From: Blastocatellia bacterium
GTDB taxonomy: Bacteria; Acidobacteriota; Blastocatellia; RBC074
Length of the DNA: 64,000 nucleotides
Assembly (NCBI GenBank): GCA_046155785.1
Contig: JBJXFR010000208.1
Location: forward strand, 18-64,017
Reading direction: 5' to 3'
Below, one piece after another: positions 50,083-51,361 of this stretch (position 1 is the first letter of the stretch; every line of letters begins with the position of its first letter). The notes beneath the pieces were generated by a model. It did not search any database, was not told the DNA's origin, and saw only the letters and a program-made list of their open reading frames with translations. Both the position numbers and the translations under genes were made by a program.

Positions 50083-50272
50083 TGTTTTGCAAACGGAGAT
50101 GCTGCGACAGGCAAAGAGCGCTTACCGATTGCAAATTTTCCATAGCGATTTTGGGTGGAAGAGGTAAGTTTTACAGAAAGTCGTTTGGCCTTAGTTTGAG
50201 CTTGATGCCATGAAACGCGAAAAAAGCCTGTCGTTATTGAGCTTAAGCGCTTTTTTCAATATCGCCGCACTC

Positions 50273-50288
50273 TGGCATCGTGGTTGCA
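50273..50288 (+). promoter_or_regulatory. Sigma54 (-24/-12) promoter
   Basis: TGGCATCGTGGTTGCA matches TGGCA-N6-TTGC with exact GG-N10-GC spacing; no credible ORF follows. Confidence 0.65.
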
Positions 50289-50296
50289 CTAGCTTA

Positions 50297-50433
50297 GGTG
50301 GGGCAACGAGATACCAGGTGGTTAATCCCACTGACGGTGTCAGCGGTTATCATCGGTGAGGAAGGTAACCGCACTTATCAGGCGCGACAGGCAATCCCAC
50401 GACTGTCGCGCCTATTTCTTTTTCCGGCCACCC
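50297..50433 (+). ncRNA. Candidate sigma54-dependent small RNA, copy B (three hairpins, repeated AAUCCCAC)
   Basis: Hairpins at 50311-50340, 50343-50372 and 50380-50413 followed by a U-tract; AATCCCAC at 50324 and 50393; ends GGCCACCC. Confidence 0.6.
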
Positions 50434-50437
50434 CTTC

Positions 50438-51361
50438 TCAAGCCTTCGGGTGCGCCTTGTCATAAACTTCCATCAATTTGTCAGTTGAAACGTGTGTGTA
50501 TTTTTGTGTGGTCGAAAGCCGCGCGTGACCTAGCATTTCCTGAATCGCGCGCAAATCCGCTCCCGCATCCAGCAAATGGGTGGCGAACGAGTGTCGCAAG
50601 CTGTGCGGGCTAATGTGCTGAATCTCCGCGCACATCTTGACGTGCTTATCCACCATTCTGCCAACCGAACGCGGATTTATGCGCGTGCCCTGATAATTGA
50701 AAAACAATGTTGATGGGTCGCGTTTGTCTTCATCTGCTTCAATCAACAGCTCGCCGCGCACAGCCAGATAATTCTGCAAAGCCGTCAGTGCGTGATTACC
50801 AAACGGAACTATGCGCTCTTTCCGTCCTTTGCCTTTGACGCGGACGGTTTGGTTAGGGAAATCAACGTCGGTCAGGTTCAAGCCAACCATTTCCGATACG
50901 CGCAATCCGCTGGCGTAAAGCAATTCCAACATTGCGCGATCACGTTTGCCCAGCAGGGTTTCAGTATCCGGCGTTTCAATGAATCGAATCATCTGTTCGA
51001 TGGTCAGGTGCTTTGGCAACGTGCGTTCGACGCGCGGCGAAGCGACCAGCTTGGCAGGATTCATTTCCATCACGCCTTCGCGACACAGGTAGCGAAAGAA
51101 GCTTCGCAAACTGGCGACTTTGCGATGGATGGAGCTTTTCTTTTTCTTCTTCTCGTACAGCGAAGCCAGGTATTCACGGACAGTCAAATGGTCTATGTCG
51201 CGCACGTTGACTGTGCGTCGCTTGCCGTCTTCATCCGGCGGAGCCACGTAATCGTAAAACTGACTCAAATCGCTTTCGTAATTCCGCAGCGTGTGCGGAG
51301 AAGCATTCCGCTCGTATTTCAAATGCTTCATGAAATCATCCAGGTGATTTTGCACAGGCAC
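50438..51361 (-). CDS. xerC: Tyrosine recombinase XerC
   Basis: [55 protein letters not shown]. Confidence 0.93.

Follow-up and report, generated by a model that had tools for sequence, protein, structure and literature searches.

The window, that is, the whole stretch of DNA analysed (64,000 nucleotides of a Blastocatellia genome), carries a short noncoding segment between two protein-coding genes. The upstream neighbor, a PQQ-like beta-propeller gene, extends to 50082, and the downstream neighbor is a convergent tyrosine-recombinase (xerC-like) gene with its stop codon at 50438. A preliminary description of this segment had claimed a sigma-54 promoter with three hairpins and a U-tract after it on the + strand, and all of these elements were found in place (Table 1). 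The + strand folded with -60.8 kcal/mol (z = -4.85; 0 of 200 shuffles were as good), and the fold of the - strand was weaker (-53.0 kcal/mol, z = -3.36). In addition, many G-U pairs fit the + strand only, in agreement with the strand proposed earlier. The letters directly 3' of the hairpin 3 stem read ATTTCTTTTT / AUUUCUUUUU, which is the U-tract. With a G+C-rich 11-bp stem followed by this tract, hairpin 3 qualifies as an intrinsic terminator; a simple terminator scanner missed it, its loop being 12 nt long and the scanner limit being 8.

Table 1. Features of the RNA locus and its upstream region in the window
Feature	Position	Strand	Basis
Sigma-54 (-24/-12) promoter TGGCATCGTGGTTGCA	50273..50288	+	Read from the letters; conserved in homologues
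Predicted sRNA transcript, ~125 nt	50299..50423	+	Predicted start from promoter geometry, predicted end from U-tract
Invariant single-stranded 5' end UGGGGCAA, candidate seed	50299..50306	+	GGGGCA in 70/70 aligned homologues; unpaired in covariation-supported structure
Hairpin 1, two-part stem	50310..50341	+	Arms 50310-50315/50336-50341 plus 50317-50321/50328-50332; from the fold
Hairpin 2	50343..50372	+	Stem 50343-50351/50364-50372; loop with invariant GGUGAGGA at 50355-50362
Hairpin 3, intrinsic terminator	50380..50423	+	Stem 50380-50390/50403-50413; loop UCCCACG 50395-50401; U-tract 50414-50423
Proximal enhancer-like site GTAAGTTTTAC, GT-N7-AC palindrome	50164..50174	+	110 nt upstream of the -24 GG
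Distal enhancer-like site GCAAATTTTCC, degenerate in the window copy	50131..50141	+	33 bp upstream of the proximal site; placed by position relative to homologues
Conserved block AAGCCTGTCGTTATTGAGC between enhancer and promoter	50224..50242	+	Common to the four copies in the host genome

The RNA had been called unannotated, and the Rfam scan proposed along with that claim returned no family match: nothing reached the gathering threshold anywhere in the window. At E values up to 10, the region 50100-50500 matched Qrr (15 bits) and AsdA (13 bits) and nothing else, and fifteen divergent homologue loci gave chance matches only at E values up to 1. A full-text literature search found no paper on an sRNA of Acidobacteria or Blastocatellia. 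Metatranscriptome contigs (from four of the five runs found, which had small word shares) were 151 to 250 nt long and lay thinly on the flanking genes, with none over 50096-50428.

The host genome contains four copies of the RNA gene, which were retrieved with 50200-50500 in a BLAST search of its own assembly. They are located on contigs C115 (the window), C135, C314, and C87, the last of these copies being cut by the contig end. The copies are 88 to 91% identical from the promoter through the U-tract, and their flanks are unrelated except for short upstream blocks. No neighbor genes are shared among the four. The window copy lies between the beta-propeller gene and xerC, the C135 copy beside an acyltransferase and an ABC-2 permease, the C314 copy beside a 521-amino-acid (aa) open reading frame (ORF) without a Pfam match that is followed by aroB, and the C87 copy among phage-tail-collar genes. 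The window and C135 copies each face a convergent gene, and neither has a co-oriented gene downstream.

Sixty-one related genomes were searched with a query that also included part of xerC. Its RNA part (from 50270 or 50273 to 50423) had matches in all 36 other genomes of the host's family, among them the unpublished G023, with 1 to 5 copies each, mostly 3 to 5. The xerC part of the query matched elsewhere in these genomes, away from the RNA copies, indicating that the link to xerC is local and recent. A covariance model (R1) built from 29 copies of the host's family and a second one (R2) built from 70 diverse homologues scored the predicted transcript at 160.5 and 128.4 bits, respectively. 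With R1, full-length matches were detected in 95 of 151 sampled genomes of the class Blastocatellia (the 95 include the unpublished G147). They fell into four families, namely, f1, the family of the host (37 of 38 genomes), f6 (33 of 34), f9 (8 of 9), and f3 (16 of 38), and none was detected in the 31 genomes of families f2, f4, f5, f7, f8, and f10. When R2 was applied to 151 genomes from across the phylum, the RNA was found in 7 of the 12 members of Blastocatellia and in none of the 139 Acidobacteriota genomes outside this class. Outside f1 the copy number was usually one or two.

In three families, one copy of the RNA gene is located upstream of aroB and in the same orientation. In f1 and f6, an ORF of 495 to 521 aa without a Pfam match separates the RNA from aroB (the ORFs at C314:19529-21094 in the host genome G000, equivalent to L147:4529-6094 on the - strand, and at L269:4439-5926 were noted). 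In f3, the RNA lies between glmM and aroB and directly abuts the latter. This synteny indicates that the gene was inherited vertically from a common ancestor and was later duplicated in f1, and the window copy is, as judged from sequence, one of the f1 duplicates.

A 22-nt pattern taken from the 5' portion of the RNA was matched exactly in at least 115 stretches of a species-representative genome collection. The titles of the matches listed were those of Acidobacteriota/Blastocatellia metagenome-assembled genomes or read "Heliomicrobium" or "Heliobacteriaceae" (e.g., L034, L038, L044, L049, and L051). NCBI taxonomy places the latter two names in Bacillota, and these titles probably reflect mislabelled assemblies rather than the presence of the RNA in Firmicutes.

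To describe the structure, sixty divergent loci and ten copies from the host's family were aligned to the covariance model, giving 70 sequences. In this alignment, 96.2% of the cells could pair, compared to 79.8% in column shuffles and 30 to 55% with slid partners, and compensatory changes were present in 29 of the 31 base pairs. None of 500 shuffles reached any of these measures. Fitting the alignment to the model favors the structure, but swaps between families are nevertheless visible in the raw alignment, for example, from GCGG/CCGC to GUGG/CCAC and from GCGCGACAG to GCGCUGCAG. The sequence of hairpin 1 varies from family to family, and its two helices had 88 to 91% of cells paired and compensatory changes in 10 of 11 pairs. 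For hairpin 2 the values were 99.2% and 8 of 9 pairs, and for hairpin 3 they were 99.3% and 11 of 11 pairs. The conservation of structure in relatives that had been named as a check is thus borne out by a covariation-supported three-hairpin fold in 70 homologues. Together, the copies, the homologues, the promoter, and the covariation constitute strong comparative evidence for what the preliminary description had proposed, a stand-alone + strand sRNA with three hairpins and a start near 50297-50300. An independently transcribed gene for a structured RNA is, judged by these patterns, very highly probable.

The unpaired segments of the RNA were conserved to different degrees. The GGGGCA(A) right after the promoter was unpaired and unchanged in all 70 homologues, which represent all four families. 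The hairpin 2 loop contained GGUGAGGA in 69 of the 70, and the single exception reads GGUGAGAA. The terminator loop UCCCACG was present in 64 homologues; the six without it comprise the second paralogue type of f6 and a few f3 copies, and they still carry the 5' motif and the loop 2 motif. The preliminary description had drawn attention instead to an octamer, AATCCCAC, that occurs at 50324 and again at 50393. Five matches to this octamer were counted in the window, compared to 1.49 expected, and five or more were obtained in 3 of 100 shuffles. Both copies of the repeated AAUCCCAC do exist, but the repeat could not be upheld as a functional unit, as the loop part of the first copy varies within the family. 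Since the first copy (50324-50331) divides into a loop half (AATC) and a stem-arm half (CCAC), and its loop part is variable, the repetition is partly accidental. On the evidence of the aligned letters, the conserved unpaired elements are the 5' GGGGCAA, loop 2, and mostly loop 3, and not the repeated AAUCCCAC.

The pattern TGGCAYN5TTGCW matched once in the 64-kb window, where 0.25 matches were expected, and at least one match was obtained in 23 of 100 shuffles. By itself, the promoter pattern is therefore within chance as a sequence match, and its significance rests on conservation among homologues. GGCA[CT]N5TTGC was kept in 67 of the 69 homologues for which upstream sequence was available, and the remaining two read CTCGC and TTGT. 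The distance from the end of the promoter to GGGGC was 12 nt in 57 cases and 13 nt in 9 cases, and it was unusable for one of the 67 promoter-bearing homologues. The usual geometry of sigma-54 promoters fixes the start position relative to the -24 and -12 elements. This geometry would place the start at about 50299 and make GGGGCAA the 5' end of the RNA. The host genome encodes rpoN (one Sigma54_DBD match above the cutoff) and 21 strong Sigma54_activat proteins, each with an E value of 1.5e-48 or better. The promoter kept at a fixed spacing and the presence of rpoN agree with the sigma-54 promoter as first read, and the RNA gene is, on these comparisons, most probably sigma-54 dependent.

The sequences upstream of the promoter could not be aligned between families, yet they have in common a G[AT]A-N5-T[AT]C site, examples of which are GTAAGAATTAC, GTATTTTTTAC, and GAAATTTCTAC. 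In 44 of 68 homologues, the first position of such a site lies between -115 and -106 relative to the -24 GG, and in 51 of 68, by a hand count from the site listing, two such sites are located 21 to 33 bp apart. The paired enhancer-like sites near -110 and -133/-143 correspond to the usual 80- to 150-bp range of activator sites and are predicted to be bound. The distal site of the window copy breaks the strict pattern at two positions. Among 247 promoter-like matches in the genome, a GTA-N5-TAC site at -110 to -112 was found only at the sRNA copies, of which the three with intact upstream sequence were counted; one weaker, off-consensus promoter match has such a site at -107. The AAGCCTGTCGTTATTGAGC block recurs as a YTTTATTGRG-like sequence in most copies of the host's family and may be a DNA-bending site. 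In family f6, another conserved block, ACCGGAATGAGTG, immediately precedes the -24 element.

Candidate activators were compared in a tree of 140 proteins from four RNA-bearing genomes (the host and three from other families) and three RNA-less genomes. Of the 143 sequences extracted for this set, 3 were removed because their length was below 300 aa. One gene with an internal stop was also dropped, and 5 of the 35 matches of genome G039 had no locus and were left out. Only one single-copy orthogroup (support, 100) was present in all four RNA-bearing genomes and in none of the three RNA-less genomes. In the host it is a 470-aa protein with the domains Response_reg, Sigma54_activat, and HTH_8, encoded at C300:18430-19839 (genome G000). 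The best matches over the 151 class genomes fell into an orthologue level of 53 to 95% identity and a paralogue level of 42 to 48%. When the RNA and protein searches over the same genomes were cross-tabulated by hand, an orthologue (at least 53% identity) was found in 90 of the 95 genomes with the RNA and in 3 of the 56 without it. The five RNA-bearing genomes without an orthologue were three of f6, one of f9, and one of f3, the last with a weak RNA match. In one of the three RNA-less genomes with an orthologue, a fragmented f1 assembly, only a piece of the gene is present, and three more RNA-less genomes gave ambiguous matches of 47 to 48%. The link to this regulator is a lead only, since the genomes compared share ancestry, provide few independent contrasts, and may owe the pattern to a small number of gains or losses. 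That the C300 response regulator activates the RNA gene, as its distribution suggests, is a proposition that we regard as evenly poised.

No activator gene was found within about 6 kb of the four copies of the host or within about 4.5 kb of eight homologue loci. The neighborhood of the regulator gene was inspected in three genomes. A histidine kinase gene follows it in G070 and G096, which belong to two other families, and none is adjacent to it in the host genome. In G096, the divergently oriented gene for a 1,008-aa TPR-Sigma54_activat-HTH_8 protein (L412:4197-7223) adjoins the candidate regulator and the kinase. In five f3 genomes (G155, G058, G160, G123, and G105), the regulator orthologue matches from residue 133 to 145 onward, with ORFs of 363 to 385 aa, and these proteins seem, from their sequences, to be without a receiver domain; the regulator is full length, at 53 to 57% identity, in other f3 genomes. 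Two further ideas about the regulation were dropped. The GT-N7-AC sites could be read as NorR-like, and the one GAF-type activator (L150) was considered accordingly, but its orthogroup occurs in an RNA-less genome and is missing from one RNA-bearing genome. Feedback of the RNA on the regulator mRNA was considered for a perfect UCCUCACC at -22 in G070, which is absent in G000 and G096 and hence unconserved.

The explanation that we favor, and consider probable, is that the locus encodes a trans-acting sibling sRNA of the Qrr/Pxr kind, driven by sigma-54 and vertically inherited through much of Blastocatellia. According to this analysis, 50273-50423 would be the complete gene for a noncoding RNA of about 125 nt, one of four paralogues. 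In the sequence of events that we infer, from transcription through the identity of the activator to base pairing as the mode of action, the sigma-54 polymerase would start at about 50299, so that GGGGCAA would form the extreme 5' end. Initiation would need an enhancer-binding ATPase at the two GT-N7-AC-like sites about 110 and 133 to 143 nt upstream, the best candidate being the NtrC-type response regulator on contig C300. The third hairpin and the U-tract would stop transcription. The released RNA would then most likely act in trans on other transcripts, pairing via GGGGCAA, GGUGAGGA, and UCCCACG, probably together with Hfq, in a circuit comparable to that of Qrr in Vibrio or that of Pxr in Myxococcus.

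Qrr comprises five homologous Vibrio sRNAs that are reported to need sigma-54 and a single activator of the response-regulator type, LuxO (10.1101/2021.07.01.450815; PMC3730234). The RNA described here is like Qrr (RF00378) in having several sibling sigma-54 sRNA genes per genome (four here and 1 to 10 in relatives), in its length of about 110 to 125 nt, and in its series of hairpins, of which the last is an intrinsic terminator, with unpaired segments that do not vary; the host genome also encodes Hfq. This likeness is one of design, not of descent. There is no homology to Qrr, as the match of 15 bits compares with a gathering score of 50 and has an E value of 4.1, and the aligned stretch CCACUGACG lies in a hairpin 1 arm that is unconserved outside the host's family. 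The RNA further differs from Qrr in its phylum, its three helical elements, its enhancer motif, and the lack of an adjacent activator gene, such as luxO beside qrr1.

Pxr of Myxococcus is reported to have a coding region of 108 nt (PMC5568312; PMC5684412), and one of the reports also describes a sigma-54 promoter, a triple stem-loop, and a location downstream of the regulator gene nla19 (PMC5568312). In Cystobacter, Pxr paralogues each with their own sigma-54 promoter are described (PMC5568312; PMC5684412). Compared with Pxr as described there, the RNA shares the sigma-54 promoter, the three stem-loops, and paralogues each with their own promoter, but in contrast to the pxr-nla19 arrangement, its copies are mostly dispersed and have no activator adjacent. 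It was set apart from Pxr by this description, and the Rfam scans gave nothing relevant. GlmY/GlmZ and CrcZ/CrcY are paralogous pairs with sigma-54 promoters under a dedicated two-component activator, and they titrate RapZ or Hfq/Crc via known motifs. None of these motifs is evident in the RNA described here, which gave no match to these families in Rfam at E values up to 10. It belongs to neither Qrr nor Pxr, as its phylum, sequence, and enhancer motif are different and no regulator is adjacent, and it apparently represents an undescribed, class-restricted family of sigma-54 sibling sRNAs.

If the RNA acts at all, it must do so in trans, since a convergent gene lies opposite two of the four copies. 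The host genome has an Hfq gene and the RNA has a terminator U-tail; Hfq is a candidate partner. Base pairing via the invariant unpaired motifs would be the most economical reading of the conservation pattern, and we lean toward it slightly. Target scans were carried out in the host genome alone with crude ORF-based 5' windows. Complementary k-mers in these windows were at most 1.7-fold above expectation, and ranking by duplex energy gave isolated outliers with no common theme and no coherent target set in this genome. A peak of CGTGGGA at start codons was an artefact of GTG being called as the start. G-rich invariant motifs such as GGGGCAA and GGUGAGGA are also unusual for seeds that block ribosome-binding sites, so protein binding or tertiary contacts would suit them equally well.

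The same sigma-54 RNA gene might instead act by titrating a protein, with the invariant loops as recognition sites. GlmY, CrcZ, and 6S RNA work by binding or titrating a protein. The invariance of loop 2 and the 5' GGGGCAA across families while the stems changed freely would fit such a function, as would the lack of enriched complementary sites in the target scans. However, neither CsrA (PF02599) nor ProQ was found in the host genome, which is 96.4% complete, and the RNA has a single GGA-bearing loop, compared to the many in CsrA sponges of the CsrB/RsmZ type. No candidate partner protein was linked to any copy examined, and we consider titration unlikely, while still giving it real weight.

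A more unusual possibility, which we rate as rather improbable, is a dedicated two-component/sigma-54 circuit of independent origin in Acidobacteria, in which the response regulator would control essentially only the sibling sRNAs, as LuxO does with qrr. There would be no ordinary seed pairing in such a circuit. Instead, UCCCAC of loop 3 would toggle between two internal mimics, the 5' GUGGGG and GUGAGGA of loop 2, which would make the RNA a new kind of regulator that gates itself or titrates a protein.

The alternation of loop 3 between the 5' GUGGGG and GUG(A)GGA of loop 2 could also be that of a compact, tertiary-folded sensor or switch. Loop 3 is complementary to the former and, with one bulged A, to the latter. 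Pairing of loop 3 with the 5' end, as a pseudoknot, is possible in 95.4% of the cells and the kissing pair between loops 2 and 3 in 98.0%, and RNAalifold offered an alternative in which the 5' GGGGC pairs with the 5' arm of hairpin 2. On the other hand, both long-range pairings had zero covariation and scored like the shuffles, because these columns hardly vary. Moreover, U-to-C changes in the 5' motif were uncompensated in loop 3, and the 6 of 70 homologues without the loop 3 motif keep both of its would-be partners. A switch of this kind has a low probability.

It is very unlikely that the element acts in cis, be it at the ancestral locus, as leader or attenuator for the aroB operon downstream, or in the window, as no more than the xerC terminator. 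The co-oriented copy upstream of aroB in three families would suit the former, and the distance of 24 nt between the end of the hairpin 3 stem and the xerC stop codon would suit the latter. Every copy, however, has its own strong terminator, and the window and C135 copies have no co-oriented gene downstream to act on. Adjacency to xerC is confined to the closest relatives, and TGATAAGTG, not a U-tract, comes after the hairpin on the - strand. That the hairpins serve only as the xerC terminator, which would have spoken against the original proposal, is excluded, as the other three copies and the homologues elsewhere are not beside xerC.

Still less probable is a dispersed repeat or mobile-element remnant without a function of its own. 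The RNA is multicopy, with up to 10 copies per genome and some in tandem about 2.8 kb apart. In contrast, its place beside aroB is syntenic in three families, compensatory evolution in all stems indicates selection on the RNA, the promoter and enhancer are conserved, and no terminal repeats or transposase were noticed incidentally beside the copies examined. A small protein is hardly tenable: a 55-codon ORF with a leaderless GTG start (50298-50465) overlaps the RNA in the window copy, contrary to the earlier remark that no credible ORF follows the promoter, but the frame is unconserved across the 70 homologues, being open for 6 to 80 codons, starting with GCG or TCG in some, and diverging by frameshift after a few residues, with variation that tracks base pairing and not codon logic.

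Acidobacteriota are abundant in soil and wastewater and are hard to grow. The module in hand consists of a covariation-supported RNA, a conserved sigma-54 promoter with its enhancer, and a single candidate response regulator, and it can be studied in those members of the class that are in culture or after reconstruction in a heterologous host. The arrangement in which one sigma-54 activator controls several sibling sRNAs has been described in Vibrio and Myxococcus, and the module would be a further, independent case. The alignment and the model could seed a new Rfam family for the annotation of Blastocatellia genomes.

Two variants of the family were noted in addition. The f1 genomes G143 and G106 have 10 and 7 copies, respectively, and some pairs are separated by about 2.8 kb within a contig; the copy number in these two genomes is expanded, partly in tandem. 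Family f6 has a second paralogue type (L230, L231, L241, L247, and L252), in which the UCCCACG loop is missing and hairpin 1 differs. It keeps the sigma-54 promoter, the 5' GGGGCA, loop 2, and the paired upstream sites, which are shifted to about -76/-98 or -89/-111. In both loci examined (L270 and L276), this paralogue is located beside an OmpA-family gene.
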